Shown: positions 1 through 47,258, counted from the whole stretch's first letter. The stretch is DNA of 50,361 nt, filler included, from Jimgerdemannia flammicorona (GCA_003990765.1; 2 parts of 2 records of this genome joined end to end with filler, not necessarily neighbours in it); one strand, 5' to 3'. Numbers and translations: made by a program. Notes: generated by a model from the sequence alone, not told the origin.

Positions 1-3000
1 CCCTCAACCTCCCCCTGCCCGAGCACCACCCAATTACCCACTATCTGAACCCTCCCACCACTCTTCTGGGCGATATGCTACACCAGACCCCTGTGGTACC
101 CCCCACCCATCCTCCAACCCCGCCACCAGCTATTCAAAATATCCAACATCAACCATTCCCACCAGGCCATCTTGTCACTAACCCCGACCCGGCACCCTTT
201 CTCAAATACATAAACCCAATGACCCACCAGCCCAACCCACATAGCTAAAGCCCAACTAAGGGTCAGCCATTTGTCCCCAACTCCTCCCACCAGTTGCTGG
301 CAGAGCTCTCCCCATCTCCCCCCTACCTCTCCCTCCATGGCACCCCGCCCTACCCTGTCCCTAACATCTCTCCAAAACTCCCCCAAAACCTCGCATTTCC
401 CAAGCCAATGTTCAGGCATTTGTATCACTCCTCCCTCCTGACCCACATTGAAACAATTCTCGCACTCGAATACCCCACTATCCACCAAGTGTCCAGACCG
501 ATAGTTCAATATCACATTCCACCATAGGACCTGCCACCACACCACCCAGAACTTGGGGGGCAGCCACTGCCACACCTGTTTGCTCCAAAGCCAGAGTCCA
601 TTCCAATCCCACTCCTCTCTAATTCCAACCCTCTGCCAGGCTTCTGGCCACAGGTCTCCACCTAGGCCTCACAAACACTCCAGGCCCTTACCAAGCTGAA
701 AGTCCTCCACCAGGACACCACCCAATAGAAGCCTGTCCCACTACCACATCTGCAGTCTCCAAACCTCCTCAGCTTCTTCACCTTGCTACTGAAGTCCAAT
801 CTTCTTAGCACCATCTACCACCCCCCACCAAAAGCCTGTAAACCACATCTTCCTGCTCCCTTCCATGGCCATCATCACAAGCAGATCCCCGGAGCTACTA
901 CATGGGGAGTACCGAATCTCCCACAACCTCTGCATGAGTGGTACCCACTCCTGTCCCCTGAGCTCGCTTGCTCTATGCAGCCACCAGGCTCTCAGATATA
1001 GAAGCTGCTTAGTAAAGTCCACTAGGCCTAGCCCACCTCTTTCCAAGGGCAGTGTGAGCACCTCCCAACCAACCTGGCTTTGCCATCCTCCCCAGATCCA
1101 TGACCTTGCCATCTTCGACAACTCCTTAACCACCCAGGTTGGGAAATCCAAATAATATCCAATATACTACAGCTTCGGCATCCAGTACACATTCAACACC
1201 ATCACCCTTCCAGCAAGGGACATATGCCAGCCTCCCCATCACAGCAAGACATTACCCCACTCCAGAAGTTTATGGTCCCACTATGCCTGAGGAAGAAGAG
1301 ATCCGAATACTGAGAAGTAAATCCCCAAGTAGCGCACTAGTTCACCTGTCAGTACCACTGTCTCAATAACATTGCCACCAACAATTCCAGTGCTCAGCAC
1401 CAGCGTCTCACATTTGTGCCAGTTAAGTTTAGCACCAGAACCCTGCTCATACCATTCCACAGTCTTCTGTAACTCTCCCACATCTCCCAAGGAGCCCAGC
1501 CCGACCACCATGTCATCAGCAAAGGCCCCCACCTTCCAGTTCACCCCTAAAATGTCCAAGTCTCCAATCTTATGCCAAATCCTGTCCAGTAGTGGCTCCA
1601 GGGAAAGAGCATACAATATGAGCGACAAGGGGTCCCCTTGTGGTACCCCACATCCCAGGGGAAAAGTCACCCCCCTGTGGCCATTGATGACTAATGCTGC
1701 CTGACTGTCCTCCAGAAGGCTGATTACTGAACTTCAGATCCCTGGCGGGATACCAATCCACTTCAGCACTCCTTCCAGCCATATTCTCCACACTCTATCA
1801 TAAGCCTTCTCTTGGTCCAGAAATACCAATCAGTCATCCACCCCTGTCGCCCGGATACCTTCAATCACTCCATGAACCCAGGCTGTCCCATCTCGAATCA
1901 ACTGACCACCAACAAACCCACGTTGCTCCACACCAAGAACCTGCTGAGCGATGCCTTGCAACCTCATCACCAAGATTTTCATCACCAATTTGTGGTCCAT
2001 GTTGAGCAGCATAATTGGCCACCAGTTCTTCCAGTCCTCTCGCCTACCCTTGTCCTTAAAGAGCAAAGAGACCAGCCCTAAGCGCTGTCCCCCAATCCAG
2101 GCACCAGACCGAAGAACTCCATCACACATAGCAGTCATTTCCTCTAGCACCTCACCCACCCCAGTCATCTTCTGCCAAAAATCCCAGGGAAGCCCATCCT
2201 CTCCCAGAGCTGTCCCCTTACTCATTGAGGCCACAACCCTGCAAATCTCCTCACCACTCACTAGGTCCCCCAATGCCCCAAGTCCAACCGCAGGGTATGG
2301 GTGCCAATCCCCCATCCTCCTCACTCCAAATATTCCCCCACCAGGTTCACAGTAGGCCCAGAATTGCCGGAGTCTCCACCACCAGCTCGCCATTCTCATC
2401 CAAAACTCCCTCCCACTGTTGCCTCATTTGTCATGCTTGTAATAACCATGACAAAAATCTGATAGGTCTCTCCCCCTCCTCAAGCCCCTGCCACCTCAGA
2501 CAGGTCACCATTCCCTGCAACTGCTCCTCCTCCTCCCTGTGTAGCACCCCTTTGAGCTCCGCCACCTCCTGCCAGATCCTCGCAATATGCCAATCAGTCA
2601 TGGCCCCATCCTCCAATATACCTGCCCATCTCTCCATGAGTACTGCCAGATGCTGTGAGGTCCACAGCACCTGCCGCCTTCGCTGGGCACACTTCCCTTT
2701 CCCCGCTTCCCTCTAATACTTCTGAGCCTTTGCCTTCAGCCTTCTCCAGTGGTCCCCAATTGCCAGTCCTTGTTCCCACCACCTGCCGATATTTCCAACC
2801 ACCTCTGATTCTCACCCCTCCCACAACACTCTATCCTCCAACAGGGAAGAATTTAGTTGCCAATATCCCGGCCCATCCGCATTTCCCCCAAACCTCCTCC
2901 CTCCAAGCAGCCCCCAGTGATCAGACCATAGACACCATATGACTTCCAGCATCGACCAGACATCAGTTCTCCAACACTCTGCTGTTAGAACCCAGTCAAT

Positions 3001-3598
3001 CCTGGAGCCCAGTCCTGCCACCCAGTGGGTGTACATCCACCAATCAGTCCAAAAATGTCTTTCTGAGTCTACTAGAGAACACAACCTCTCCATCTCCAAC
3101 CAGTCACCCAATCCACCACTTTCACTCCACATACCTCTCCCTCCATCAGTTCTGTCCAACTCCTTATCCTGTACCATGTTGAAGTCACCCCCCATACAGT
3201 CTAACCCAACCTCTCCCACCACACCAGCCTCTTTCAATCTGCGGATCCATTCCACCCTCTCCCCTCTCTCAGCTGGGCAGTAACAGGACCCAACCATCAG
3301 TGGGCCCCATCCAGGCTGCTTCCACACTCCCCATACCACCCAAGACCCATAATGTCCAATGTTCCCAATGTCCCCCATCCCTTTCCGAATGAGAATACAC
3401 ACTTTCCCCCTCCAAACTGCTGTGCCCCCCCATTCCTTAGTCCAAATCCTGTAAGTCCATATCTGCCTCATAACAAACATCCTGCAGTAAGAAGAGGTCT
3501 GCATCCAGTCCCTTAAGCCAACCAAATATAAACTTCCTCCTCGCCGACCCCCATAGCCCATTAACGTTCAATGAGAAAATCCTAGTTGTACTGTTCAT
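1..3598 (-). pseudogene. LINE ORF2 (APE endonuclease - reverse transcriptase - zinc knuckle), disrupted
   Basis: ATG at 3598. An extra T near 3445 relative to the right copy (caggatTtgg vs caggattgg) shifts the frame. Many R>W and T>M changes typical of CpG decay (NWWPIMLLNMDHK for the usual NWRPITLLNTDYK). Confidence 0.93.
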
Positions 3599-3629
3599 AT
3601 TGAAGAAATGTTGCAATAGAGACCCCACC

Positions 3630-4904
3630 CTACAATTCTATGCTCATCTCATCTCCTGCCAGATCCAAGTGCTGCTCAGCTTCCAATTTACCCTCTGCAT
3701 TATCCTGAGCATCCAGTGCCCCCAAGATTTCCTGACATTCCACCCTGTCCACTTCCTCCATATTAGCCCTGTAGTTCAAGCAGACAGCACGCCACTTCTC
3801 CAGTCCCTTCCTCAAATTCCACAAGAAAAGTGCTCTGTTACTTGCAATCCTCCTAAGTTCCTCCTCTCGCTAATTATCAACCTGATATTCAACCGACTCC
3901 AGGAGGACTGTCAGGATCTCATTCCTCATCTTCCTCGGCACCTCCTCCCCCCATAGGATCTCCTCCCAATACTTCTCCTCCAACACTCTGAAGTCCTCAC
4001 CCCCCAGCTCTTCAGCCGCTACCCCTTCCAAGGTCTTCCACATCCACTTCTCCTTATCTACTGCCTCCACCGCCCCCTGAGCGATTTGTCCTCCATCCAC
4101 CTCAGGGTCCACCAGTGTGCTCCTCCTCACTGACTCATCCCACTCCTCATCCAGCACATCCATCAACTCCTTCTCCCCCTCTGCCCCATCCAGAACACTA
4201 TACTGAGGGTGCACACCCTCACCCATTTTGGCATCCACCTCCAAAATGCCCTCCCTCCCCTCTCCACCTCCAATCTGAACCTTGCCCTGGGCCATCTCTC
4301 CCCCCTCAGCCCAGGTGCTCTCCCACGACCCTGCAACACCCTCTCCTGAGCTTCCACCAGCCCCCCCCCCACCCAACTTTGCCAACAGCTCCTTCTGGAT
4401 CCTCCTCCCCTACATCTTTTCCCAGGCCCCCTTCTCCATCCGGATCCTCTTCCCATCCACCTCCCCCACTACTGTCCTGGCCTCAAACTCCTTCCAGGCC
4501 AATCTCCTCCTCACCACTGCCCCTTCCAGGTCCTCCAGAGCCTCCAACAGGTCCTTCTCCTCCTCCGGAGTCCCCTTCACCCTGGTGACCTTATACTCCA
4601 CCGGTTCCCACCGCAGTGCTGCTGGCTAGTCCCTCGACTTTCCCATATTCTCCTTCCCAGCCAGCCTCACCTGGACATCGACATCGCCAGTTCTAAGCTC
4701 TGTTCCCTCCCAGACCTTGAACCCAATATCCACAATCTCGCCATACTCCTTAACTGCCTCCACAACCAACTCCCTGGACCTTTCCTTTGATATAGTCGGG
4801 AGGTCCAATACCATCAGCTGCACCACTCGAGGGTCCCAGCACATGCACTAGGCCATAGGGACCACAACTCCACCAACCATCACCCCCTTCTCCATAGCTG
4901 CCAA
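3630..4904 (-). pseudogene. LINE ORF1 (partial, premature stops)
   Basis: ORF pieces 4626..4844, 4410..4601, 3870..4385 and 3630..3824 align with the plus-strand ORFs 48189..49340 and 49347..50105. Confidence 0.9.
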
Positions 4905-5600
4905 AGTTTGGGATTAGCTGAGCAGTAATGGTATATATTTTACATTTCTCCCAAATATACTTATTTATCTCTTTTGACTTATCAAAATAGTATAGTACCA
5001 ATTTGACTAGTTTATAATAGCTCATTCTTATTCTAAATCTGTTTCTTCCCATTTTTATTCATATTTATCTCAATGTAAAACTTTTTCAAAAATATGATAA
5101 TTCTTAAGAATATCTTTAAGAGTGGTATTAGTGGTATAGAGGTATAAATCTTTATATATTCCAATAGGTTGCAAAGATTGTGCTGGAATTGCTTGAGCTT
5201 TTTGTAGGGCAATATATCTTTAGCTTTCTTCTGAGCTTATTTAATATTCTCTTCAGCTTTTTGTTTGATGTGAGAGTAGTGGTAAAGGTGACAATAGTAG
5301 TAATAGTAGTACATAGTAGTAGTAGTAGTGGTAGTGGTGGGGGTAATAATAGTAGTAGTGGCAGCAGTGATAGCTTTCTTTTGAGTAGTAGTGGTAGCTT
5401 TCTTCCAGACTTGTCACTCATTATATATTCTGATATTTTATATAACACTTGTCTTGACTTTTTACTTCATTCAAATATGCTCCTCATTATCAGAAGTATT
5501 CTCATTACTAGCTAAAGTTAGTGAAGGAGTAATACTAGTTCTTGATGTGTAAAATATTCCTTTATTAACTATAATGTATACTTCTTCAATGTTAATTTAA
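4905..5600 (-). mobile_element. Hypermutated AT-rich relic, possibly a Helitron Rep N-terminal region
   Basis: One minus frame reads ...VYLGEM*NIYHYCSANPKLWQ up to the LINE junction. This resembles the YLGxMxxxCxxCxAxxW motif of Helitron Rep proteins once G>A and C>T changes are reverted. Contains (TAG)n at ~5295-5330. Confidence 0.3.
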
Positions 5601-6480
5601 TAAGAAAGGTTTGTATTTCATAGATATAGTTTTTAATATTAGCTAGAAAGTTAAAGTAATTGATTGAGATACTCATATTTTGATTATTGTTTATTTGCAA
5701 ACTATTGTTAAAAAGGTATATCAGTTACAAAAATATATATATTAGCTATAAGATTTTATAATTACTTTCTGATTTTACAGTCATATATTATACTTGGCCA
5801 TTTCAAGATTTTGAGAATTTTAAATAATTATTAGAAGTATGAGGATTTTGAACTTGAGATAACAAGATGATTGTATTAAGATTTTATTGAAAGTGTGAGA
5901 ATTTTGAACTTAAGATAAGAAAATTATAGATAGATAATAATAGTTAATAGAAATATTATTATAATTATTTTATATTTATATTATAGTTATTATATATATT
6001 TATACTATAATATATATAAAAAGAGAGATTTTATACCAAATATATTTACAGATACTATATTTGGTAAAATAATAATTTTTGTAAGAAAATTTGTCTATAT
6101 ATAGTTATAATCTAAGAGATAATGAATAAAGAATAAGTGGGTGAAGACTGTGGGTGGGTGACTATAAAAAAAAGTATAATAAGTAAAAAAAAAGCATAAT
6201 AATAAAAAAAATATAATAAGTAAAAAAAGTATATATATATATATATTCCTTTGACTGTTTTGCATCTATATTTAGAGATAAGATTTTAAAAGTTTATAAC
6301 TTTTATTGGTAAACAAATTGAAATATATTTTTAACAAAAAAACAATATTTCAAAAAATTATTTCTTTCAAACCTTAATTTGTTTGCTTAATGAATTTAAA
6401 AGATGATATTATCTATAGTCAAAGAGATAATGAAAAAAATATAATAAGTAAAAAAAGCTTACTAAAAAGTATATATACTA

Positions 6481-6806
6481 TTAGGAATCCTAGATAGCTA
6501 GCCATATGGCCAATAGCTAGTAAAGATGACTTAGTTTTAAATTTATAGCTAACTGACCAAGTGGCTCAATCTTAAATTTAGTTTAGCCAGATAGTCAATC
6601 TATAAATTTAAAGCCAAGCCACTCTATCTTGATCTTAAATTTATAGCTAACTAGTTAAGTAGAATTTATAGATCTTTTATTTAATTTTGAAAATTTGGAA
6701 ATCAGAATAGCCAAATAAGGCCTAACTATTTAACCAACTAGCCAATTTATAAATTTAAGACTGAGCCATCCTGGTCAGCCATTGGCTATATGACCTCTCT
6801 ATATAC
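6481..6806. repeat. Foldback/MITE-like element with ~47-bp inverted repeats; host site of the Gypsy insertion
   Basis: 6501-6547 is an imperfect reverse complement of 6748-6794, and nearly all mismatches are transitions. Internal ttaaatttatagctaact repeats are present. Similar sequence resumes at 16798-16910. Confidence 0.55.
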
Positions 6807-8018
6807 TATGATGAGCAAATAGTATAACATAGCCAGATGATGTAAACTTCTAGTATAGTATAGTTACTCATGCCTGTCATACTTATAATTAGCCAGAATA
6901 CTGAATCAGAGTTATTTATCTATGTCCTGAAAACACATCTATATTTAGTAGATATACTTATATCCTGTAGATATACCCAAATATTACCAGAGATGATAAA
7001 TCTATAATTATTCAGATAGTAACCAGATAGCAACTATAATAAATAAAATATCCTAGAGATAAGAGTGAATTAACCTCAGTTTGAAATTTAAAGTAAAAGA
7101 CAAGTCTGCCTATCACACTTTAAGAGAAACTCTATAGTTACTACTAGAAGATTGTGAGCTTACTTTTCACTCTGGTCTACTTTCTGATATAAAGAACAAG
7201 TCTATTTTTGGTTTTCTTACTAGATAAGCCTGAAGAAATTGCTGAGTTCAAGAAAGAACTTCACCACTATTTGAGTAATCTACTGCTTAAGGAATAAGCT
7301 ACCATTTTTAAGAAAAACCTATATTCTCAGAGAGCCTACTATAAGGAACCTTGCTATAAAGCCAGTCTGTTGACACAACTTTATAGTAGAGCTAGTCTAA
7401 TGATATAACTCCATACAAACAAAGCCAGTCTTGATACAACTTTACTCAAGAAATCTGCTATTCTTAGAAGCCTACTGATTCAGAAAAAATCTACATCATC
7501 TGAGTTATCTAAATATCTACCATCTAAGTTATTTATCTATTTCTAGGGAGCTTGATTCAGAAGAATCCACACTATCTACTATTTCCAGAAAGCTACTGAT
7601 TCAGGAGAATCTACACCCAAATTAAGTTATCTACCAAATTGCCAGAATGTCATATATAAGGAATCTGCTATACTATACAAGAAATCATTATGCAGAAATT
7701 ACATACTTTTAGAGATTGTCATTTAAGAAAAAAACTGCTAAATTATCAGACTATTATACATAAGAAATCACCACACTATATAGAGATCATCATGCTATAC
7801 TAAATTATCTACCACATATACAAATTACCACTATATCTAGAGAACTATCTCAATAAGGAAATTGATATACAAATTGACTGCAGATATCCAACTTTGACTA
7901 TTATATCACTAAATATTAAGAACATTTTATTACTTTTTAACAAAGTAACTAAGGGCTCAAGCTAAACTACATTAACCCCAACCTTATAATTTACCTCCAT
8001 TGTGCTGGGCACATTATA
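6807..8018 (+). repeat. 5' LTR
   Basis: Aligns with 15583-16793. Termini are TA...TA, i.e. the canonical TG...CA with both ends mutated. Confidence 0.92.
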
Positions 8019-8019
8019 T

Positions 8020-8038
8020 TCAGGGGCTCAACTGGGAA
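8020..8038 (+). promoter_or_regulatory. Probable primer-binding site, tRNA-Pro-like
   Basis: caggggctcaactgggaa lies just after the 5' LTR and matches the tRNA-Pro-type PBS TGGGGGCTCGTCCGGGAT at 12/18 positions; four of the six mismatches are transitions. Confidence 0.5.
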
Positions 8039-8050
8039 GATTTCAAATTA

Positions 8051-11000
8051 ATGAGACTTTTCAGCTTATAAGAACTCACAGCCAAACTGGATATATTTGA
8101 TACAATATCAATCTCTATCACTACAGGAGAACCAGTCATCACTAGTATTTAGACAGGAAGAGAAGTAATTACTTCAAGACTTGCCAACTACTCAGTATCA
8201 GAGAGATCCCAACCAGAAGCCGGTACAGTTCAGAATCCCTAGCCAGTACTAACAGACTTATTATAGGACCAACCAGACCAATCAGATTATACAGGCAGCC
8301 CTGTTGAAAACTTTGAAGAACTTGCACAAGAACTAGAAAATCTTATTACATAAGTCTGGAATCCTGTAGCCAGATATCCCACAGAGGTCCCACTAATCTC
8401 ACCCATTGAACCTTTACCACCAGTTCTTGCAAAATTGAAAGTAGTTTCTTCAAGAATACCTAAGCTCATTCCACTTCATCTGAGGTCCATAATATTATCC
8501 TCAAGATACCCAAGTACTCTCATTTTCAGTAATAGTTCAGAAAGTAAACTAGAGTCAGAATCTGAATCAGAATCCAGATCAGAATTAGAATTAGAAGAAA
8601 GTGACAATGAAATGACTACCTCATTGCCAATCTTTACAAGATATTCAGAAGAAGATCCTAGAGAATTCCTTAATGAGATTGAGAAAATTGCAGCCCTAAA
8701 GAATCTCTCAGACAAAAGAAAAATTGTTATCTACAAGACTCAGCTCAGAGAACCAGTCAGAGGAATTTTCCACTGAGCAGCAAATAACCCACATTTAGAA
8801 CTTGTAATAGAAATATAAGCAGCAGTATTTTATCAGCTGGAATATATAACCATAGATCACTAACTTATTAAAACAATATGCAGGAAATGAAACCTATCAT
8901 AAGGCTCAAGAATCCATCATAGGAATGAAGATGAATCTTAAAGAATTACTTAGAGTCTTCTTTATAAGAATCTAGAAGAGAATGCATGCAGTAGAATTCA
9001 GTGCTGCCAACTAAGACATTATAGGTCCAATGATCTTCATAAATGAAATTCCCCCAAATATTGCCCAGTATGTCTGCACCCTAGATATCAGAAGGTCTAA
9101 AGAATAAGTAGATGCAGCCCAAGGATTCTTTGATGTCAGACAAGAAACTATCTAGAGTAACCATAATAAGAAAGATAATAAAGAAGACATTCTAGTCAAA
9201 GTCTTGCAAGGACTCCTCTAAGAACAGGAGAGATCTGAAGAAAGAAGACCAGCCAAGGAAGGAAAGAAGAATAGGAGTAAAATTCAAGACCTTAGTTCCA
9301 AGTTAGACCAATTGGATGGACAGATTGAAAAACTCACTATATATAAAAATTAGAGTTATAAACAAGACAACAGAGGATATCCACCACAGAGGAATTAAGG
9401 TTATCTACTTAGAGATAACAGGAGCTACCAACAAGAAGAAAGAAGATACTCTGTCTAAGATAGAGCTCAAGTCCAGTGCTTTTACTGTGAATAGTTCAGA
9501 TACTATGTCACTGAATGTAATAATAAAAGAAGTGACTGAAGGGACTCAGAACCACCAAACTGAAGAAATGATATCCAGTATAAGAAGACTGAGACCCACT
9601 CTGTTAAAGATTTCAAAGAAGAAAACAATAGTGAAGACTATAGTAACCTGGACTTGTATCTAATCAAAGTTATCATCCAAAAGACAGTTTATCTAGCAGA
9701 GAAAAGAAAGAGATCTGTAGAGAGGCCATCTAGAAATACCAGTATAAGAATTCAAGAGAAAGATAAAGAACATAAAGAAGAGCAAGTAGAAATATCTTCC
9801 CAGTCTCTTATCTTTTGTTCTCAAAACAAATAAATTGCCTCCAGAAGATAAAGCTGCTCCAAAATCCAAGAAGAAGTATACCTCAAAGACCATACTCAGA
9901 GATATCTACAATAAAGCCTGGTAAAAGATTCAAGAAGTCAAGATAGAAGTTCCTCTCCTATAGTTCCTACAACTAATACCAGCTGGAGTCTGAAATAAAT
10001 TACTGAGGACTATCAGATCTAATACTGACTGAGTTTCAATTCTATAGCAAGAGCTAGCTTCCACCTCTATCTAAGTAGAGAGATATATCAGCACCTATCT
10101 ATATAGAGATATTGGAGGACAAAAGGCAAAAATCCTCATAGATACAGAGCAGCTGTCTATATCATTATCAAATAATTCCTAGATATCCTCCAATAGCCCA
10201 TTGATGGACTATCTAACCTTAGCATTATAGTAGCAGATGGAGCCCAAACTCAACCCCTTGGAGAAGTATGAAACATCACTATCTCCCTTAGACACATCCA
10301 GTTCTCTATCCTAAAAGCTATTATTACTAAAGCTGTTACTTATAATGTGATTCTTAGTATTAACTAAAAGAAGGAAATGAATGCAGTTCTTGATATTGAT
10401 CAACAAGTACTCAAGTTTAACTACCAAGGCAAGAAGTATAGAGTTAAGATGACCAGCTATAAGCAATTAAAGAAGAAGAAGAAGGTCATTATCCAGAAAG
10501 AATATACTAGTAGTAAAGAGTCTACCACAGAAGAGGAAGAAGAATCTGAAGATGGAAATGATCCCAGACTCAATTCCTGAATCAACCTAGTAGATGATAG
10601 GTCAGAAGACAATATGTGGGTCAGAAATACTATTCCCATTACTATTAGAGCCATTGTAGAAGAAATCAAAGGATGCTCTATCTGCCTTAAGAGACACAAG
10701 TGTCCCAAGCACTCTTCCAAGATTATTGAGATAAGGAATTCATCTGGTACAGCTTTTTCTGAGTGTAGAAGAAAGAAGAAGAAATATAGATATACATATT
10801 CCAGAAATACCTATAGCTAAAGCTACAGAAGTATAAGCAATTTGGAGTCAAGAATTATCTGAGAAAGAAGAAGCCCCTGAACAGGAGGTTCCTAAACAAA
10901 AAGTATCTAAAGAAGAAGAGATTCCCAAACTCATTCCCTGGGATAACTCTCACTGGACACCATCTGAAGATAATGACTTCTGGAATATTAAAGAAGAACT

Positions 11001-14000
11001 CTACATAATCTTCATTATTTCCAAATAAGAAATATACCAAGAAAGAGCTTTTAAGTTAAGAAGATATCTATATCAAATGATCTTCCACTCTCCCCAAGAC
11101 TACTGCTATCAGTACTATGTATCTGTTAGATCAATAAGAAAGATAGAAACTCTAAAGATTAGAACTCCCAACTATAGTTATATAGTCAACTATCTTCCAA
11201 GAAGTTACCACTAAATTGCAAAGTTAATTTAGAGGATAAGGTCTCTTCATCTGAACAGAAGTATACCCTCTGTCCACTCTTTTCTTAGTCTATAATCAAG
11301 ATAGATACCGATTTCCAAAGTAGAAAGAAATCAACAATTAAGAATAATATTTTTGAGCAATAAGATATTACAACTATAGAAGACACCCAGACTGCCAAGA
11401 CTACAGACACTAGAAGATCTATCTCAGTCAGGATGTTGCAATTCATATATTGAAGAGAGGAGATAATAGAGGTCAGATCTGAAAAAGTCAAGCCCAGAAG
11501 CCAGAAAGAAGGATCCTTAAGATCTACAATTTGAGAGAAGATATCTTAGCTCTTATCAGACATACAACCTGCCAAGGATGGGTAGAAGATACCACCAGCT
11601 TTATAGAAGCCTTAGATCTAACAGAAAAAAGAAGAATTAGTTATCTCTGAGACCCCTCTACTAGAGCCAGATGATTGCACCTCAATCTCAGAGTCTAGAG
11701 ACTCTCTACTAGTAGAGCTTCAGCCCAAGGACAGCCCAAACTCAGTAAAGATATTGCCCAGTATGCCCTGCTATATCCTAAGACCAAACCCCCAACCAAA
11801 GCTCACCAAGAAGATATAGAGTATAATCTCTATAGTCTGGAGGATGAATCTATTAAGTCTGGAAGAACACTGATATTCAGAACCAGACTAGCCATACAGC
11901 CACTCTAAGAAACTTACATCTAACTGACCTCAAGGTCTGGACTTACCAGACAAGAAATAACTATAGAAGGAGGAACTATTGACCCAAGATATATAGGCAA
12001 AATCAACATAATCCTATACAATAGTAGTATAGAATGGTACTAAATTATGAGAGAATAAAAGATTATTCAAGCAGTCTTCATGAAAGTCAAGATTTCACAA
12101 TTACAAGAAGTCTCCAAACTGACTGAAGGAATAAGGCAAGCTAAAGGATTTGAAAGCTCAGATAAGAAAGAAGTATATCTCCTTTAGGTCAATTACTTCA
12201 AGAGGAATATGCTCTCTACCAATTAGTCAAACTATATAAGAATCTTATCCTGGAGCCTAGAGAGCAAACCACCTTCGAAATATTTGCACTATCTGACCCC
12301 AGAAACCTCTTCTTTTAACCCAATGAAGATATCCAAAATATAGATATTAAAGGATATATATTCTCTAATAAGATGAACCCAGTATACTCCTGAGCAACCA
12401 ACCAAAGTTGGAAAAATATCATTTTGTTAAAAGAAACCATCATAGGATATCTGGTACCTTTTCTCTACCAAACTTATAGAGAAGTTTATGAACTAAACTT
12501 ACTAGGAAATGACAAAAGATCTCAGAAGAAAAGAAAGACCCCTCTATAATTCAGAAGATAGTAAAGTCTTCTACTAATATTGGAGAAGAATTGGCACCCC
12601 AGTAATAATAATAACTAGTAGAACTCCTCAATAAGTATCAAGATATCTTCACTACTGATTATGGCAATCTGCCATACAACTCATCATATTACTATAGTAT
12701 AAATACAGGAAATATAATACTCATCTGGCAGAAATCCTATAGAATACCCCATTATCTAAAGATATTCAAAAAAGAGCATATTTAAGAACTCTTGGACAAT
12801 AGAGTCATCTGACCCTCTACTAGCCCTTGGGCCAGCCCTATACTTATTATACCAAAGAAAGAAAGATAGAGACTCTATATAGATTACAAGAAACTCAATT
12901 CAGTTACTGAAAGAGATATCTATTCTGTACCAGAATCAATGACTTCTTGGACCAGTTATAAGATGCCAGATACTTCAGTAGTATGGACCTTTTTGCAGAA
13001 TTTTACAAAATCTCCATAGATCTCAAGGATATTCAGAAAACAGTCTTTTTTGTTCTAAAAAAACTGTTTAAGTATCTCTGAATACTCTTTGGACTTTACA
13101 ATACACCTCTTACCTTTCAGAGAATGATAAATTCAGACTATACCCCTCTGATCCATCACTGTCTGATTGTATATATAGATGATTCAAATATCTATTCAGC
13201 AAATTTTGATGAATACCTGCACTACCTAGAAGAATTCTTCAAGCTCACCTGCAAGAACTACCTGAGACTCAATACCAAGAAATGCTATTTTGGAAAACAG
13301 AAACTTGAATTCCTTGGATTCATAGTTTCAAAAGAAGGAACTCATGCAGCTCCAAAGAAGACTGAGAAGATTAATAATTAGCCAGTACTCAAGACTCTGA
13401 AGAAAATACTATCATTTCTGATACTAGTGTCCTACTACAGAAGGTTTATCAAGAACTTTTCCCAAATCACTACCCCAATTTGAATCCTTCTCAAGAAAGA
13501 AGTACCTTACAAATGGATGGAATTATATACAAGAACTAGCCTTCAAGGAACTCAAGTACTGCATGACTACAGCACTAATCCTTATTTACCCCAATCTACA
13601 AAAGCCATTCATCTTATATATAGATACCTCTAAAGATAGTCTGAGAGCAGTTCTAGCCCAAGAAGAACCTGACCAACAGTACCATATAATAGCTTATATA
13701 AGTCAAGCTATCAATCAGCAGCAAACCAACTATGGTAACACCAAACTAGAATGTCTTATAGTCATATGGGTGATTGCTCTTTTCAAGCATTATCTCATCT
13801 GAAAAATATTCACTCTGATAACTGACTATATAGCCCTCAAATAGCTATTCAACTATAAGAAACCTACTAGAATCCTAGCCTACTGGATTCTTATCCTCTA
13901 GGATTACAAAATCACCATTATCCATAAAGCAGAGAAAGCTTACAACAATGTTAATATACTTTTCTACCAACCCCAATAAATCAGAAGAAGGATATACCAA

Positions 14001-15047
14001 GAAACTATTCCCTAAAGAAAACTTCTCAGACCATTAAGGAACAAGAATATCTCATCTGAAAAGAATATCAGAAAGCTCATCAAGGATAGGCAAATATAGA
14101 AAAAAAGTTAAAAACAATATATTAACATTGGCCCAATCTCAGAACACAAGTCCAGGATATACTTAAGAAATATAATATCTGCCAGAAGTATCAAGGAAGG
14201 AAGAATCACTAAGTATCACTAAAACCAATCATACCACTAGACAATATCTTTCAGAGATAAGAAGTAGATGTAATTAGACCCCTACCAGTTATGCCAAGAA
14301 GAAATAAATATATTCTTATATTTGTAGAACATCTGACCAAGTGGCCTAAGGTTTTTCCAATGAAAATTATAGTTGCCTTGACCATTGTAGGCCTTCTCTA
14401 TGAACTTATACTTAGATATAGATCTCTAGAAGAACTTATCTCTGATTGAGGCACAGAATTCATCAATAATATAATTACAAGTTATACCTAAATTTATAAG
14501 ATCTACCTCAAATAAATGATATCATACCACTCTTAGACCAATGGTATAATAGAAAAAATGAAACAGACCATTAAGAAAGAACTTACCCAAGTCAATTCTA
14601 CCAACTGGGATCTCTGCTTATCTGAGATCCTATGGGAAATTCAGAACATCCCTATTGCCTCCATCAAACAAAAGCACTTCAAAATAATATTTGCTAAGAA
14701 AACCAGAACTACTGACTATGAGAACTTCAGAGACCTCCTCAAGAAGGCAGAACAGTTATATAATTAAGCCTGAGTTCAGATTATCAAAGCTCAAGAAAGA
14801 CAAAAGAAGTACTATGACCAGAAGCAGAAGGATCAGAAGATTAAGATTGAAGATCAAGTACTAGTTTGGAGAAGTATGATTGAAATCAACTTTGCTACCA
14901 AACTGGAGCCCAAATGGGAGAGACCTTGTCTTATAAACAACATCAGAGAGATCAGCATCTATTTAAGAAGTATAGATAGATGAACTCTGAGGACACCAAT
15001 ATATATCAATTGCCTCAAGATATATATCATAAATCAAAGAATTAATA
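8051..15047 (+). pseudogene. gag-pol polyprotein of the Gypsy element (inactivated)
   Basis: The frame is traceable from ATG 8051. It is interrupted mostly by TAA/TAG/TGA codons explainable as CAA, CAG, CGA or TGG transitions, with few frameshifts. Confidence 0.9.
11756..12166 (+). pseudogene. dut: Trimeric dUTPase domain within pol, between protease and RT
   Basis: A single frame shows all five motifs in order: DIEYNLY (DAGYDLY), SRSGL, GGTIDPRYIGKI (GxIDxxYxGEI), KIIQ (RIAQ) and RQAKGFESSD (RGxxGFGSxG). Four in-frame TAA stops. Confidence 0.9.
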
Positions 15048-15543
15048 ACTGCCTCCAGACTCTTGTTCTCAGTTCTCTCTAAGCCCTATAGTTTCCCTAC
15101 TATAGTTCCAAGCATCCAATAGAATATATCTTCAAAGAATCCAGGTTTATCAAGAAAACCTCACTCTGACTAAGAGATTACTCCAGATCTACCAGCTACA
15201 GGCCTACTATATAATTAGAGAACAGTTGCAGAATCTTTCTTTTCCAGATCTGGCTGATGTCTGAAATACCACTGGTCTGAATAGAAGGAATATCACTATT
15301 GTAGAAAGACTATACCCAATCTATAAATGAAAACCTTCAGCTCTGATCTAGACCCAGTTGTCTCTGAATGATCTCTAAAGAATAACTCTATCTATCTATC
15401 TTAGTATCATCCACTAAGTTGAGACTCTATTCTCTAAGAAAGAAAAGAAGTCTCTAGAATAGAGTGACTATAGTATAGACAATGAAGATGATGGAATAGA
15501 TATAGATGCAAAAGCTGTTTATGCTTATTGAGATAATAACTGA
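15046..15543 (+). pseudogene. Probable third ORF between integrase and the 3' LTR
   Basis: Frame 15127-15543 reads YLQRIQVYQENLTLTKRLLQIYQLQAYYIIREQL...ERLYPIYK...DNEDDG without a frameshift. All internal stops can be reverted by a single C>T. The start is uncertain. Confidence 0.5.
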
Positions 15544-15582
15544 AAAATAGTCTGAGGCAGACCATTTTTCAGTAGAGGCTAA

Positions 15583-16793
15583 TGTGATAAGCAAATAGTA
15601 TAATATAGCCAGATGATATAAACTCCCAGTATAGTATAGTTACTTATATCTATCATACTTATAATTAGTCAGGATATCAAATTAGGGTTATTTATCTATA
15701 TTCTGAGGATACATCTATATTTAGTGGACACACTCATGTTCTATAGATATACTCATATCCTGTAGACATACTTATGTCCTACAGATACACTCATGTCCTG
15801 TAGATATATCCAAATATTACCAGAGATAATAAATCTATAATTATCCAGATAGCAATCAGATAGCAACCATAATATATAAAATACCCTAGAGATAGAGTAA
15901 ATAAACCTTAGTCTGAAATTTAAAGCAAAAGACAAGTCTGTCTACTACACTTTGAGAGGAACTCTACAGCTACTACTAGGAGATTGTGAGCTTACTTTTC
16001 ACTCTGATCCTTTCTGATATAAAGAATGAGTCCATTTTTAGTTTACTTACCAGATAAGTCTGAAGAAACTACTAAGTTCAAGAAAGAACTTTGCCACCAT
16101 TTGAGTAATCTGCTGCTTAAGAAATAAGCTACTATTTTTAAGAAGAACCTGTATTTCCAGAGAGCCTGCTATAAGGAACCTTACCACAAAGTCAGTCTTG
16201 ATATAACTTTGCTCAAGAAATCTGTCATTCTCAGAAGTCTGCCAATTCAAAAAGAATCTATATCATATGAGTTATCTGAATATCTGCTACCCAAGTTATT
16301 TATCCATTATTAATGAGTCTGATTCAGAAGAATCCACACTATCTACTATTCTTAGAAAGCTGTCAATTTAGAAAAATCTATACTCAAATTGAGTTATCTG
16401 CCAAATTGTCAGAATATCATATATAAGAAATCTGTTGTACTATACAAGAGATCATCATACAGAAATTGCATACTTTTGGAAATTGCCACTTAAGAAGAAA
16501 ACTGCTAAATTGTCAGACTGTCATATATAGGAGATCACTATACTACATAGAGATTATCATACTATATGTACCAATTATCTACTACATATCCAAATTGCTG
16601 CTATATCTAGAGAACTATCTCAATAAGAAAATCAACATACAAATTAACTGCAGATATCTAGCTTTGACTATTATATTACTAAATATTAAGAACATTTTGT
16701 TACTTTTTAACAAAATAACTGTGGGCTCAAGTCAAACTATATCAACTTTCAATCTTGTAATTTGTCTCCATTGAGCTAGATATGTATATTACA
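15583..16793 (+). repeat. 3' LTR
   Basis: TG...CA termini, preceded by a short degenerate purine tract (agtagagg) and followed by the TSD ATAC. Confidence 0.92.
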
Positions 16794-19150
16794 ATACTAT
16801 AACTTAAAAATTAAGCTCAGTTACTTGGTTAGCCAGTAGCTAACTATAGCTGATCATAGCTCTATCTAGTTATAGCTGATCAGAGTGATCTAGACATAGC
16901 TAGGATCTATTTATAATATATTAATTCTATCAGTACATAGTTTTATTATATTTATCAGACTTCAATTTGCTGATAATATAGTTATATATAAATATTAGTA
17001 AACAGTTTTTTTATTTTAAAATAATATAAAAAAAAAAGAGTATTTAAATATATATATATAATTATATAATAAAGAAAGTTAAAATAATAGTAAGAGATAA
17101 AAATGAACCAATGATTAATTAACTTTAAATTACAATAACTTTATAATTAATTATCTAAATATAAACAAAGTATATACTTTATAAAAACTATTAGAATTGA
17201 AATATAAATTTAATACTATTTATATTTAAATTAAAATCAATTTATAATATAACAATAATTTAGTATTGATCTATTTTTATCTCTTATTATATATTTAATA
17301 AATATTAATATATTGACAATAAAGCTCAAAAATATATATATTAACTCTAATAGCTATATAACTAATTTATATATACTTAGATTTATTTATAACAAACTTA
17401 AAAATCTACTTTATAGTATATTTAATAAAAAATTGATCTATACTTTATATATAATTTAAATGATAATTAAGATTGAGATACTGGTGCAGATAAGAGAGAA
17501 GAGTTGGAAGTAATATAAGAAGTCTGAAATTAATATTATTAATAATAATGATAGAATTGATTATTATTAATGCGCAGTCTCATGACCTTCATTTGTTTTA
17601 GTATTAACATCCATCCTGAATTCAGTAACAGGTAATCTCATGATCTTAACATGCAGCATCATTCAAGTTATCCTTGATATTGTTTTCCACCACAATTTTT
17701 TTTTTTGGTGAAAATAAATGTCTCATTTTTCTATTTTCCCGCAATTTGCGCAATTTGCCAGAGCCCATTTTTCCGTAACCCTACGATGACTGGTATATAC
17801 CCTCAAATCAACGTAGCAGATGCCTTAAAAGCAGTCATAATCTGGGAAGTTAACTCTATCTTTCAAGCGTCGTGTCACTAAACATCCAGAGCGTTTATCG
17901 AACATATGCCATTAAGTTTAGAAACGCAGTCCCAGCGCGTGCAACTGTCCAGGACCAACGATAATGTTGCATCGACCATATGGGTTCCTTATTAGCCACA
18001 ACATGGAGCACTGGCATTCTCGATATCGAGGCAAAGGCCATCCGACGAACCGAGAGATTTCCAAAATCGGGAAACTCCCGTCCACACGCAACCAAATGGG
18101 GTACATAAACAAGTTCAATGAACACTAACCCAAGGAGCAAAGTGGCGGACATTCGTGTGTTCGAAGCACTAGCGTTGAGTGGATCATTAATATGACCGCA
18201 AATAACAGAAGTGATGCAAAGCCAATGTGATGTAAACGCAACTTTAGACAGCTCTTTATGCACAAGGAGTGTCAGAGAGAAGCACTGGAGAAGAACAAAA
18301 ACCTCACCCCATACTGCGGCCAATGAACACTCCTAGTTCAAGCATATTCGTAGACTCTACTTCGGTTCCATTTATTCAAAGGGGATATTTGGGGGCAGCT
18401 GACAGCCGAATATAATCGACAGCCATGCGACCATGCGATTGCCAAACGCGACAAACTCTGTATATCTATTTCTTTTTTCCACGTGTTTAGTCTATTTATG
18501 AAATGATTACACAAGGAAATCGTGTGTCGACGCGCGGACAGCAATCATCAAAGAGTTTATACCTGGCGTCTTTCAGCAAACATAATCCCCCCTCAGCCTA
18601 TGACGCTCCCCCCCCGCTAAAGGGTGATCCGCGTGGATTTGTATATAGGCCCTAGACATGTATCCCAGTTATCCCGAATGTAAAGAAAGTAACAGTAACC
18701 AAAACGGTCCATTTCAGGTTTCAATGTTGGTGCTAACTCGTAACCACATCCAGTGACATAAGTGGACAATATTGTGGGTAAATTTTTTCGGTGTGCGATT
18801 TGACGAGAAGTGCTTGGATTTGTGTACACCAATACTTATTCTAACTCGATATGGTCATGATAAGTTTTGAGATTTTGGTCTAACTAATCATGTTCCGGAT
18901 ATATGTTCAAAATGGCTTTCGGATACCGACGTCACTTTTATTCTCTCGACCGATTTATCAATACATCTCATAGAAATCTGTTTATGTTCCCAGCGTGGTA
19001 CATTGCATAGCATTGCATTTTGGGGGAATGATTTTATCTACGTGTACTTTTTGGGTGGCAAAGCCTTTTCGCCAAATGTCATGATGAATACCAACACTCT
19101 GGATCAACCGGAGCGTGCGCCCACCGGAATTCCATATCAACCGATCTCCC

Positions 19151-24042: not shown

Positions 24043-25096
24043 CGTTTCGGAAAGTCGTAGTGCGATATAGTGTATACCAAGAGGGGCTTGTAAGGATTGT
24101 CCTTTGTTTGGGATATATGGCTGTTATTGGGCGTCGACAAGCAATGAAACCCAGCAGCACGACCGTGCATCCTCAGCTCCGAGTTATGTTGTGCATGGGA
24201 ATGATCATTGGCTCCTTTTGCCTTTTACAAGTGCTCAGATCACATGTTAACCGATCAAAAATCCAATCGCGCGAGTGTGTGGGGTACTAAGCGAACGATG
24301 CACAATCGCGGAGCTGGCATTATCATTAATTTTAATCGAAGTATGCAGAATTGAAGCTACAGATCGTAACTGACGAGTGATAAAATGTCGATTTTTAAGA
24401 GTAAGTTCAACGAACATGAAGTAGAAAAATATTTGTATCACTCTGCGATAAACATGATTGTCGTTGAAAATAAAAACCTCGTTATTTCTCTGCCAGAACT
24501 TGCGCTCCGACGATTTCCTAGATGGTTGATAACGGAATAGGATGCATCGTCCATGGAACGTTTGCTTCAGCATGAGAAATGTTTGTGCTCATTCTGTTTT
24601 TTGGCGCTTCCAGATTTTGTGGGTGATTCGAGGACCAGGCCAAGGCAAGTACGACAGGGCGGAGCAATTTGTGAGGGTGTTGGGATCAGAAAATTGCAGA
24701 TGGTAAAGTATACAAAGGTAATTGTAACTAAAGGCTCTCGAGTATACATCAATAGCTAAGAAGAACATCTCCGCAACGCACTTGCCCACCGTTCAAACTG
24801 TTGAATTATAGACTGAATAATGTCATTTATTGCTACGGAAACATGAAGTATTCATAATGAAGACGTGTTCAAGGGCTAAATACGATTCATTAAGTCTAAG
24901 AAGTATAAATATATAAAATTAAGATTAGCTATCTTGAACATATTATCAATCAGACTAAAACTCATATGGACTATACTAAAATCAAAACTATAGCAGTCTA
25001 TTTAATACTAATAATAGGTACTGAAGTTAGAGTATTTATAGGTCTTACTATATAGTATAGAATATTTATTCAAGAATTCTCTAATATGTATTATAA

Positions 25097-25135
<39 letters not shown>

Positions 25136-40375: not shown

Positions 40376-40418
<43 letters not shown>

Positions 40419-43772: not shown

Positions 43773-43812
<40 letters not shown>

Positions 43813-44179: not shown

Positions 44180-44830
44180 GATGACGAACCTAAGGTAAAA
44201 ATGACACCTAATTCGAAGATCTGGCCCCCGAGATTGAATTTCATAATCAGGCGAAAAATGTGCATTCACACTATTATGCAGAATTACGTATTAGCTCCTG
44301 AATATTCTCTAGTTGACCTAGAAGAGCTTTCAGTGATAATCAACGGTTCGCGCACGCCAAAGCTTGACGGAAACATGGAGGCCGTTAATATCGAAGCTGA
44401 TGACGTGGCGCCAATTCGCAGCGCTCTTGGTGATCAAGCTCTATGGGATGAAATCGGACGCAAAATGGAGAGACTATCTTCCTAGTGAGTATTTGGCGTC
44501 ACTGCGAATGGTAAGAGGTAGCATTAATCGCATAATGTTAAAACGTTTAAACCAACTGTCAACAATCTCTTTCAGTCGAACATTGCAGAGATTCGAAGTG
44601 TTTTGATGAAGCCGTACACCGAACACGCCTACAACGTCAAAATTCACTATGATCTCGAGTACATCCATACTGTGATTCGAAATTTGTACGTTCCCCTTAA
44701 ATTTGCTAAAGCAAATTTTATTTGAAGATTGAAACGCGCTAACATCTCTACTCTCCATTTTGGACAGTGTTTCAATGGCCGAGCAGACGGTCAATCCACT
44801 CCTCGACGATTCCAGTACGGAGGGTTTTTT
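44180..44830 (+). pseudogene. Multi-exon gene remnant truncated by a retroposon insertion
   Basis: Exon-like blocks NYVLAPEYS...MERLSS*, SNIAEIRSVLMKPY...HYDLEYIHTVIRNF and VSMAEQTVNPLLDDSSTEGF are separated by GT-AG intron-like segments. There is an in-frame stop and no clear start. Confidence 0.4.
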
Positions 44831-45101
44831 GCCTGGTTGGTGGAGAGGATGGGGCCCCAAGGGGGGTTACTATAGATGACTAGTGGAAAGATATGTGAGA
44901 AAAGTGGGTAGTGAGTTGCAGTCATCAGTAACTTGGTAGTGTTTAGGAAGAGGGTGGGGAGGAAAGAGTGAGTGTTGGGGTAGAGTAGAGAGGGATTGGA
45001 TATGGCTACTAGTATAGTATAAGGATTATGTACATGTTATAGAATAGTTAATAAAGAGGTCTAGTGCTTATTGAAAAAAAAAAAAATAATAATAATAATA
45101 A
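44830..45101 (+). mobile_element. 5'-truncated LINE 3' end with poly(A) tail
   Basis: G-rich, CpG-free sequence with the same strand bias as the LINE family. AATAAA at 45050-45055, A13 at 45074-45086, then (TAA)n. Confidence 0.6.
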
Positions 45102-45419
45102 TATTAACTGGCAACTAATATATTATTATCATTATAGATTTTTTTTATAAAATGGATAGAAGCAGAATCTCTCAAGAAAGTTAATATATAGTCAATTGCA
45201 GATTTCTTTATAGAAAAATTATCTGCTGATTCAAGATCTTAATATAAGTAATTACTAATAGAGAAATGTAATTTATTATACCTTTCTCCAGTACTACTTG
45301 GATTATATAAACTTCTGATAATACTTTTGATACAGTCTTTTGGAGAAAAGGTAATAGCAATATAATAATCAATGTATAATCTGTAGAGTATACTGGGCAG
45401 AGTAGTTCTAGTACATTTG

Positions 45420-45832: not shown

Positions 45833-45835
45833 TTT

Positions 45836-47213: not shown

Positions 47214-47258
<45 letters not shown>

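Follow-up and report, generated by a model that had tools for sequence, protein, structure and literature searches.

C-to-T mutation beyond CpG, confined to transposon-derived DNA, in a window of the Jimgerdemannia flammicorona genome

Introduction

RIP, the RID-dependent process of Neurospora and other Pezizomycotina, converts C:G to T:A almost exclusively, with a strong CpA>TpA component, and leaves transposons carrying stop codons with few indels, in sharp-bordered AT-rich blocks beside genes of normal GC content. The context order in Neurospora is CpA >> CpT > CpG > CpC, and the usual index thresholds are TpA/ApT of at least 0.89 and (CpA+TpG)/(ApC+GpT) of at most 1.03. A different preference, hypermutation at TCG, was reportedly described in Microbotryum by Horns et al. 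in 2012. The trigger of RIP is quoted as a duplication of about 400 bp or more with about 80% identity or more (PMC6572847), and a composite index above 0 serves as a further criterion (PMC11105155). RIP-like repeat-directed mutation is described as restricted to ascomycetes in the part of the survey literature used here (PMC12543289).

Three other systems come close to the locus described below, each summarised from the portions of the papers drawn on here. In Zymoseptoria tritici, Dim2 methylates in the order CG > CA > CC, with almost nothing at CT (PMC8016269, Moller et al. 2021, Fig 3D legend), and causes CA>TA mutation in mitosis; more than 98% of Dim2-dependent mutations fall at CA, and CGs show no high rate of mutation (PMC8016269). 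In Phycomyces blakesleeanus, a member of the Mucoromycota, 5mC is nearly restricted to repeats, at CG and CHH sites (PMC11258239, Lax et al. 2024), is heavier on LTR than on non-LTR elements, and occurs in a genome that encodes both DIM2 and DNMT1 (PMC11258239). In basidiomycetes, transposons show methylation-associated decay of CpG only (Amselem et al. 2015, PMC4352252).

The DNA analysed here, referred to as the window, is a stretch of 50,361 nucleotides, filler included, from Jimgerdemannia flammicorona, and it is the single source of evidence. An initial annotation had proposed that an element in it carries RIP-like, repeat-restricted C>T hypermutation in an apparently non-Dikarya fungus. 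The guess about the host was right, as two markers lead to the order Endogonales (Mucoromycota). The kinesin exon shares 87-89% identity with Jimgerdemannia and Endogone, others reaching at most 77%, and groups within the Jimgerdemannia/Endogone clade with support of 100/97; for the COQ7 exon, identity is 92% with Jimgerdemannia and no higher than 74% with others. Basidiomycota, suggested by 3-7 labelled Protein Atlas members for the kinesin exon, was overruled by the named matches and the tree.

A dead Ty3/Gypsy element in a nearly CpG-free island

Positions 6807-16793 hold a dead Ty3/Gypsy LTR retrotransposon of about 10 kb, which sits within an AT-rich island of 12.7 kb that has hardly any CpG. 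Its parts are as follows.

6807..8022, plus strand: 5' LTR, from direct repeats, alignments and composition; GC 30.5%, 0 CpG
8023..15582, plus strand: internal gag-pol region; three-frame translation gives 153-160 stops per frame; 3 CpGs
9477..9518, plus strand: relic of a presumed Gag zinc knuckle, C-x2-C-x4-Y-x4-C, with an internal stop, read in the frame-1 translation
12546..13520, plus strand: reverse transcriptase, split over two frame segments with a shift close to 12932, from Pfam RVT_1 and tblastn
13518..13973, plus strand: RNase H domain, from Pfam RT_RNaseH_2 (E 1.3e-24) and tblastn
14066..15037, plus strand: integrase-like region of weak similarity, from tblastn
15583..16793, plus strand: 3' LTR, from direct repeats, alignments and composition; GC 30.5%, 0 CpG

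The Ty3/Gypsy assignment follows from the two LTRs, the order reverse transcriptase, RNase H, integrase, and a 4-base match, ATAC, flanking the LTR pair (6807-8022 and 15583-16793) and taken as the short target-site duplication. Pfam RVT_1 matches at 13082-13378 (E 1e-11), Pfam RT_RNaseH is matched as well, and the pol domains were searched by tblastn with nine Gypsy polyproteins as queries. The integrase-like region aligns with the integrase part of six of these nine at 22-26% identity (E 7e-8 to 7e-23) and has no Pfam match. The motif at 9477..9518, which we take to be a Gag zinc knuckle from its pattern, carries Tyr at the usual His position. No primer-binding site was recognised in the element.

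An exhaustive HMMER search returned only distant Gypsy relatives, about 30-46% identical, which confines the polarisation of changes to 183 conserved positions. With the RNase H piece, a word-based homologue search produced 55 candidates, none of which scored, and a metagenome scan gave 203 pattern matches with 0 confirmed. The expectation of few indels was borne out: three frame segments, spanning about 2.5 kb, cover reverse transcriptase, RNase H and integrase. The in-frame stops number 24 per 830 aligned pol codons (11 TAA, 6 TAG, 7 TGA). That they arose mostly by CAA>TAA and CAG>TAG, as had been proposed, was not confirmed in that form, although the check is a weak one made against nine distant homologues: a conserved Gln is clear at only 2 of the 24 sites, while one site has Trp in 4/9 and another Arg in 4/9. 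The 5' LTR had likewise been thought to have changed at both ends to TA...TA; its start is indeed TA against TG in the 3' LTR, but its end, under the boundary used, is still CA at 8021-8022.

Mutation spectrum and strand balance

The two LTRs give a direct record of change since insertion. A recount of the first 60 aligned bases reproduced the six differences first noticed, all transitions and five of them CA/TA or TG/TA. The full alignment comprises 974 matches, 176 mismatches and 7 gap events that take up 129 columns; 161 of the mismatches are transitions and 15 transversions (binomial P 7e-59 against a one-third transition expectation). CA/TA (41) and TG/TA (38) differences outnumber CA/TG double differences (7), and most LTR changes are therefore not plain CpG decay. 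Single transitions total 142, with 79 in the CpA class and 29 in the CpC class.

Context rates, which come from one LTR pair of about 1.2 kb under a two-copy model with no outgroup, differ strongly. At NCA, 72 sites differ and 51 keep C in both LTRs (p about 0.41 per copy); at NCC the counts are 25 and 12 (p 0.51), and at NCT 16 and 120 (p 0.06). No NCG site remains in either LTR. CpA and CpC thus exceed CpT by about 8-11 to 1 in rate (odds ratios 10.6, P 6e-16, and 15.6, P 5e-11, respectively), and the order observed is CpG > CpC ~ CpA >> CpT. The 5' neighbour of C has little effect, TCA alone being lower, and CAG (p 0.31) behaves like CAA (p 0.29). Direction was read at the 183 amino-acid positions conserved among the nine homologues, where 51 single-base changes are inferred: 37 GC>AT transitions (14 C>T, 23 G>A), 1 AT>GC transition and 13 transversions. 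The hypermutation first reported in the element is thus upheld, with its non-CpG component real, directional and context-dependent.

Changes are spread about equally over both strands and both copies (39, 40, 51, 31; by strand, 90 top and 71 bottom). An AID/APOBEC-like or other DNA cytidine deaminase, acting on reverse-transcribed cDNA or on genomic DNA, would also produce hypermutation limited to C>T and G>A in a retroelement, and the LTR element is hit harder than the LINEs of the window. However, the LTRs were identical at insertion, so their differences arose after integration, unless the cDNAs of the two LTRs were edited independently. Editing of minus-strand cDNA is expected on one strand only, and C/T and G/A changes are about equal both between the LTRs and at conserved codons; as both strands are affected, cDNA editing was rejected. 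AID/APOBEC enzymes, moreover, read the 5' neighbour of C, not the 3' neighbour on which the rates here depend, and the non-retroelement flanks are CpG-free too. Deamination by such an enzyme is accordingly a very improbable source of the pattern.

Confinement to transposon-derived DNA

Outside the Gypsy element, the window contains two LINE copies, several AT-rich blocks and a gene region.

1..4904, minus strand: GC-rich (53%) non-LTR (LINE-like) element, 5'-truncated, from Pfam RVT_1 and Exo_endo_phos on minus-strand ORFs
4905..6806, no strand: left AT-rich, CpG-free flank, GC about 24%, from composition and the CpG map
16794..17572, no strand: right AT-rich, CpG-free flank; CpGs restart at 17573
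24884..25135, plus strand: small patch within the gene region, AT-rich (GC 21-24%) and CpG-free, abutting N runs
44819..48177, no strand: second AT-rich block, GC 23%, 0 CpG
45338..45853, plus strand: decayed relic of the LINE family's 5' ORF within that block, from tblastn, 30% identity
48135..50361, plus strand: second copy from the LINE family of 1..4904, GC 56%, CpG observed/expected 0.44

The near absence of CpG noted over 10 kb was reproduced, with only three in 6807-16793 (at 8221, 11309 and 12276), and the CpG-poor domain spans 4829-17572. Equally, the neighbouring genes proved CpG-rich: 18001-45000 contains 1572 CpGs (observed/expected 1.04), its non-coding DNA is spared as well, and TpA observed/expected over these 27 kb is 0.69. 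The AT blocks, whose borders are sharp on the CpG map, have observed/expected values of 0.00-0.01 for CpG, about 1.0-1.14 for TpA and, by block, 1.39-1.64 for CpT+ApG. The left flank is probably part of an older decayed block into which the Gypsy element inserted. LINE similarity ends abruptly at 4904 in plain alignment, and a purine/pyrimidine-collapsed BLAST of 4905-5800 as a decayed LINE continuation was uninformative, giving about 70% matches everywhere. Elsewhere, the LINE relic (tblastn E 1.7e-10 when the entire window was searched and 9e-12 for the block by itself) has a GC content of 35% against 59% in the intact copy on base-by-base comparison, and the small patch encloses a Gypsy RT-connection relic at 24909-25100 (tblastn, 27 matches). 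Within this window, C>T change outside CpG is limited to transposon-derived DNA.

The LINE copies provide a control within the window, with the qualification that their divergence may partly predate insertion and may carry the effect of selection. Positions 48831-50361 are 85% identical to 4904-3373, over 1.5 kb. Per-copy loss in this pair is 0.41 at CpG and 0.06-0.10 in other contexts, and the GC-rich copies show CpG-only decay, with CpG observed/expected of 0.24 in the left copy and CpA+TpG raised to 1.24-1.33. CpT sites change at the same rate in the LINE and LTR pairs (odds ratio 0.76, P 0.43), but CpA (odds ratio 6.0, P 1e-12) and CpC (odds ratio 17, P 2e-13) are changed far less often in the LINEs. 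In transposon CpG loss the window resembles basidiomycete CpG-only decay as reported (PMC4352252), and the GC-rich LINE copies behave in just that way; the LTR element and AT blocks, however, go well beyond CpG. For CpA+TpG the LTR element has an observed/expected of 0.93-1.06, and for TpA an elevated 0.97-1.14, a pattern unlike that of CpG-only decay.

Ordinary decay with age, combining CpG methylation with general AT-biased mutation in non-recombining heterochromatin and without targeting of non-CpG C, would need only familiar processes: CpG methylation alone explains the LINE copies, spontaneous mutation is generally GC>AT-biased, and the LTR mutations are scattered and unclustered. Yet transversions amount to only 15/176 (0.65% per site per copy) against a 41-51% per-copy loss at CpA and CpC, and the ts:tv ratio is above that of the LINE pair (odds ratio 3.3, P 5e-5). 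CpT has changed by 6%, just as in the LINEs, and the excess therefore follows context rather than age. We regard this account as improbable.

True RIP deserves more weight, though we still consider it rather unlikely. Homology-recognised duplicates would be mutated by a RID-like enzyme at a set stage of the life cycle, for example premeiotically in the zygospore; the element would have been struck at a time when several similar family members existed, or because its own LTRs form a 1.2-kb duplication, and the GC-rich LINEs would be younger or have escaped. Nearly all changes are C:G>T:A and affect each strand and each copy, the CpA>TpA share is strong (79/142 single transitions), stops come with few indels, restriction to transposon DNA is sharp, and TpA/ApT reaches 0.99-1.17 within the element as compared with 0.68 for the gene region; all of this agrees with RIP. 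The LINE family is not immune, since its old relic has decayed too, and a composite-index hint outside Dikarya exists, with caveats, for Entomophthorales (PMC11105155). Against these points, the size and identity thresholds in PMC6572847 would take in the LINE pair, which lies in the same window and lacks a CpA/CpC excess; being repeated thus appears not to be sufficient for non-CpG mutation. The label "repeat-restricted" accordingly holds for confinement to transposon-derived DNA in the window and lacks support in its duplication-triggered sense.

The context order also departs from that of Neurospora, CpC being as high as CpA, CpT spared and CpG lost completely. The indices are borderline: (CpA+TpG)/(ApC+GpT) is 1.03 for the 5' LTR, 1.18 for the 3' LTR and 1.28 for the internal region, and the composite index, mostly below 0 within the element, is +0.14, -0.14 and -0.29, respectively (AT blocks: 5001-6803 +0.09 and 45001-48100 +0.08; positions 16776-18000: -0.11). 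A runs test found no same-strand or same-copy clustering of LTR mutations (P 0.41 and 0.95); the lack of same-strand runs counts against RIP, and it neither supports nor rules out episodic mutation events. The host, moreover, belongs to Endogonales and not to Ascomycota. In the parts of the literature used, a kingdom-wide screen places RIP-like signatures only in ascomycetes (PMC12543289), and such signatures are reported as undetected in Mucoromycotina (PMC8647823 citing Venice et al. 2020).

Transposon-directed methylation as a candidate mechanism

The reading we favour, at about an even chance, is transposon-directed cytosine methylation, at CpG and beyond, followed by deamination. Dependence on the 3' neighbour is the context expected of a methyltransferase that reads CpN. 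In this model, transposon and heterochromatin DNA would be methylated not only at CpG but at CpA and CpC too, probably by a DNMT1-superfamily cytosine methyltransferase, DIM-2-like and working with DNMT1, and the methylated or enzyme-engaged cytosines would then be deaminated. The sequence itself shows that a C>T mutation process, acting on both strands of the Gypsy element and probably after its insertion, erased every LTR CpG and roughly 40-50% of C before A or C in each copy, leaving C before T almost alone, while neighbouring genes and their non-coding DNA escaped. LTR elements would be affected harder than LINEs, and the outcome would be irreversible inactivation and AT-enrichment, as RIP yields in ascomycetes. 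Of the two options in the initial annotation, a repeat-targeted mutator or dense non-CpG methylation, the second fits the context order better, and the classical RIP order is not matched.

Comparison with described systems is consistent with this model in several respects. As in the part of the Zymoseptoria study used here, change is transposon-restricted and includes CA>TA, and contexts rank alike for Dim2 methylation there and for mutation here (PMC8016269). The mutations there are more than 98% CA, however, whereas here CpG has been erased and CpC is affected as much as CpA; Zymoseptoria also belongs to a different phylum, and at the present locus a mutational proxy is what was read. Phycomyces is of the same phylum, and its heavier methylation of LTR than of non-LTR elements, as given in the portion of the work drawn on, parallels the contrast between LTR element and LINEs (PMC11258239). 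Its methylation avoids CHG, while CAG is mutated like CAA here, and those portions report methylation and do not mention a mutational scar or AT-rich CpG-free islands (PMC11258239). According to reviews, early-diverging fungi have little 5mC overall (PMC13297926), which counts against the methylation reading.

Implications

The Endogonales window offers a clean case, statistically strong, polarised and internally controlled, of C>T change beyond CpG with a distinctive "not CpT" rule. It also carries a warning: with classical indices no more than borderline here, variants of this kind can escape screens by dinucleotide index or k-mer that are tuned to CpA>TpA. It is conceivable, if on balance doubtful, that Endogonales have a transposon-inactivating point-mutation defence aimed at C before G, A or C and not before T, in which a DNMT1-superfamily enzyme older than, or independent of, ascomycete RID would act. 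Were this true, RIP-like defence would not be an ascomycete invention and would either go back to the ancestor shared by Mucoromycota and Dikarya or have two separate origins. If genome-wide, the process would explain AT-rich CpG-free islands in the large, repeat-rich genomes of Endogonales, would tie Mucoromycota non-CpG methylation to irreversible transposon killing, and would give a handle on when methyltransferase-driven mutagenesis arose in fungi.

Host placement

The host was placed through two genes neighbouring the retrotransposon under study. The kinesin-1 exon (38770-39678) shares 87-89% identity with Jimgerdemannia flammicorona and Endogone sp. FLAS-F59071, and no other fungus listed exceeds 77%; in a maximum-likelihood tree of 22 rows, which is built on one partial gene and whose deep nodes lack resolution, it groups inside those Endogonales with support of 100/97. 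The COQ7 exon (27707-28372) matches J. flammicorona at 92% identity, and no other match exceeds 74%. The host is therefore a member of the Endogonales (Mucoromycota): a non-Dikarya fungus, as the initial annotation had supposed, and not one of the Pezizomycotina.

Structure of the LTR element

The region 6807-16793 is a Ty3/Gypsy LTR retrotransposon, long dead and with few indels. Its LTRs are bordered by matching 4 bases, ATAC, and alignment to Gypsy polyproteins gives the domain order reverse transcriptase (RT), RNase H, integrase.

6807-8022: 5′ LTR, direct repeat of ~1.2 kb
12546-13520: RT, nine distant Gypsy polyproteins aligned
13082-13378, + strand: RVT_1 (Pfam)
13428-13799, + strand: RT_RNaseH_2/RT_RNaseH (Pfam)
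13518-13973: RNase H, nine distant Gypsy polyproteins aligned
14066-15037: integrase, aligned for six of the nine
15583-16793: 3′ LTR, direct repeat of ~1.2 kb

The pol alignment changes frame near 12932, near 13518 and once more ahead of the integrase segment, in keeping with the scarcity of indels described initially, and stops number 153-160 in each frame of the internal part. The stretch from LTR to RT (8354-12500) is unusually long, at ~4.5 kb; its only recognisable features are a zinc-knuckle relic (near 9477) and two weak matches to a single polyprotein, P0254 (10149-10451 and 11816-12211), and it could hold gag and protease or a further ORF. Immediately 3′ of the 5′ LTR (8023-8040, GGGGCTCAACTGGG), no tRNA primer-binding site (TGG...) is recognisable; mutation or an unusual type of site may be the cause. 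Inside each LTR, copies of a 42-base repeat are paired 104 bases apart (7624-7769 and 16391-16536).

Divergence of the LTRs

Of the aligned columns of the LTR pair, 974 match, 176 mismatch and 129 are gaps. The gaps fall into 7 events, and the two large ones (57 and 63 bases) look as if short internal repeats had changed in copy number. Transitions make up 161 of the mismatches and transversions 15 (P = 7e-59 against an expectation of one-third), which confirms the hypermutation far above chance. A recount of the first 60 bases returned the same six differences as before, all transitions and five of them CA/TA or TG/TA; the terminal CA of the 5′ LTR, said to have turned into TA, is still CA with the boundary used here. 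CpG was rightly described as nearly absent: both LTRs have none and the whole element has 3, within a CpG-poor domain spanning 4829-17572. CA/TG doubles, the mark of a single ancestral CpG that decayed on one strand in one copy and on the other strand in the other, number only 7 against 41 CA/TA and 38 TG/TA differences, and most LTR divergence therefore required C>T outside CpG.

Cytosine loss by context in the LTR pair, counting only sites with identical neighbours in both copies (per-copy loss from a two-copy model)
Context; differ; both C; per-copy loss
NCA; 72; 51; ~0.41
NCC; 25; 12; ~0.51
NCT; 16; 120; ~0.06
NCG; none left; none left; complete

Loss depends on the 3′ neighbour: it exceeds that at CpT both at CpA (odds ratio 10.6, P = 6e-16) and at CpC (odds ratio 15.6, P = 5e-11), with no difference between CpA and CpC in the LTR pair (P = 0.35). 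The 5′ neighbour has a small effect, except for TCA, which is lower at 0.27, and that of the second 3′ base is also small (CAG 0.31, CAA 0.29, CAT 0.54). The composition of all AT-rich blocks follows the same rule, the surviving Cs being those that precede T: observed/expected CpT+ApG is 1.39-1.64 by block and rises to 1.86 in individual 1-kb segments, versus 0.90 in the gene region.

Because two LTR copies alone cannot be polarised, direction was taken from the coding region, using the 183 positions at which six or more homologues could be compared and 75% or more of them shared a residue. At 115 of these the element has the consensus residue; a further 11 require more than one change, 6 are ambiguous and 51 are single changes, namely 23 G>A, 14 C>T, 1 A>G, 0 T>C and 13 transversions (a transition was chosen where both kinds were possible, which biases the transition:transversion ratio, not the direction). 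Among 830 aligned codons, 24 are in-frame stops (11 TAA, 6 TAG, 7 TGA). Those at 13899 and 14534 stand where the homologues have a conserved Gln, that at 13842 where 4/9 have Trp and that at 12810 where 4/9 have Arg; at the remaining stops the homologues, ~30-45% identical, give no clear residue of origin.

Changes are about equal across both strands and both LTR copies and form no runs. This speaks against the editing of a single cDNA strand, and processive single-strand events have left no sign. AID/APOBEC-type deaminases read the 5′ neighbour, whereas dependence on the 3′ neighbour, as found in the element, would be expected of a CpN-reading methyltransferase.

Controls and relics in the window

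The gene region (18001-45000, ~27 kb) has an observed/expected CpG of ~1.0, including in non-coding kilobases of GC ~0.40, so neighbouring genes do retain CpG, as initially stated. Its observed/expected TpA is 0.69 and its TpA/ApT 0.68, values that reflect composition, not substitutions. A LINE pair provides a repeat control, and further relics lie in AT-rich DNA.

1-4904, − strand: GC-rich LINE-like copy, RVT_1 and Exo_endo_phos (Pfam)
48135-50361, + strand: LINE-like copy of the same GC-rich family
24909-25100: Gypsy RT fragment inside a 250-base CpG-free patch, GC 21-24%
44819-48177: second AT block, zero CpG, GC 23%
45338-45853: relic, within that second AT block, of the LINE 5′ ORF, E 1.7e-10 against the whole window and 9e-12 against the block alone

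The LINE copies are 85% identical across 1.5 kb (171 transitions, 53 transversions), with per-copy losses of 0.41 at CpG, 0.105 at CpA, 0.081 at CpT and 0.057 at CpC. The CpT rate is the same as in the LTR pair (odds ratio 0.76, P = 0.43), while the odds of loss are 6-fold lower at CpA (P = 1e-12) and 17-fold lower at CpC (P = 2e-13). The LINE copies thus show CpG decay only, and the CpA/CpC excess of the LTRs is not simply age, with the caveat that the LINE differences may date from before insertion and may bear the effect of selection. Their strand composition is extreme (GC skew about −0.5 in 1-4904 and +0.35 to +0.57 in 48135-50361), long ORFs persist in them (reaching 401 residues from stop to stop) and CpG is only partly depleted (0.24-0.44). 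The left copy is 5′-truncated at 4904, and the 5′ ends of both adjoin AT-rich CpG-free blocks.

The LINE family is not immune: the ORF relic has a GC of 35% versus 59% in the intact copy, with 116 GC>AT against 32 AT>GC transitions and 113 transversions in a noisy alignment. The GC-rich copies are probably younger. The patch around the small Gypsy fragment is surrounded by otherwise CpG-normal DNA. Within the window, transposon-derived sequence and CpG-free, AT-rich stretches fall together.

Right after that fragment and an A-rich run, in the filler between the two joined records, stand two 44-base N runs 12 bases apart (25136-25179 and 25192-25235), which taken alone could pass for an assembly gap or a withheld stretch; the small relic may be longer than its visible part. 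The second AT block contains two overlapping ~180-base direct repeat copies (45905-46213; 128-base offset, ~77% identity) and a 75-base segment (46237-46311) that matches, in inverted orientation and at 80% identity, 5952-6018 of the other AT block, which hints at an old repeat common to both. Near-identical low-complexity runs of 35-44 bases are common to the AT block (47212-47258) and the gene region (25098-25135, 40377-40416 and 43769-43812), and account for weak spurious tblastn matches at 47252-47407.

Origin of the mutation pattern

The initial annotation was right on the mutation as well as the host: on the evidence of a single 50-kb window, and mainly of a single LTR pair, C>T mutation extends beyond CpG and is confined to transposons. 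Repeat-induced action, its further suggestion, is not supported by this window, whose 85%-identical LINE pair is unaffected. True duplication-triggered RIP (repeat-induced point mutation) is a less likely alternative; that spared pair, borderline RIP indices and the context order of the LTR changes speak against it.

A 2025 kingdom-wide screen describes RIP-like signatures as unique to ascomycetes, its text making no mention of Endogonales (PMC12543289); in Mucoromycotina, RIP signatures are stated to have gone undetected (PMC8647823, citing Venice et al. 2020); chytrids are reported to be without RIP (PMC6572847); and composite-index hints in Entomophthorales come with caveats stated by their authors (PMC11105155). 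A search of mainly open-access literature on RIP in Mucoromycota, Endogonales or Jimgerdemannia turned up no account of this kind of signature in Endogonales.

In Zymoseptoria, Dim2 methylation ranks CG > CA > CC with almost none at CT, an order mirrored by the mutations of the LTR pair, and Dim2 drives CA>TA mutation in mitosis (PMC8016269). In Phycomyces, also of the Mucoromycota, nearly all 5mC falls in repeats, at CG and CHH sites; LTR elements carry more of it than non-LTR ones, and DIM2 and DNMT1 are encoded in the genome (PMC11258239). The element differs from both: CpG is spared in Zymoseptoria but erased here, CpC loss is here as strong as that of CpA, and CAG is not spared. The signature is a variant, in which CpG, CpA and CpC are mutated and CpT is not. 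Given the 3′-neighbour dependence, Zymoseptoria Dim2 and Phycomyces 5mC, the best reading, to which we give about an even chance, is that CpG plus non-CpG cytosine methylation would be directed at transposons in this fungus, and that deamination of the methylated cytosines would follow.
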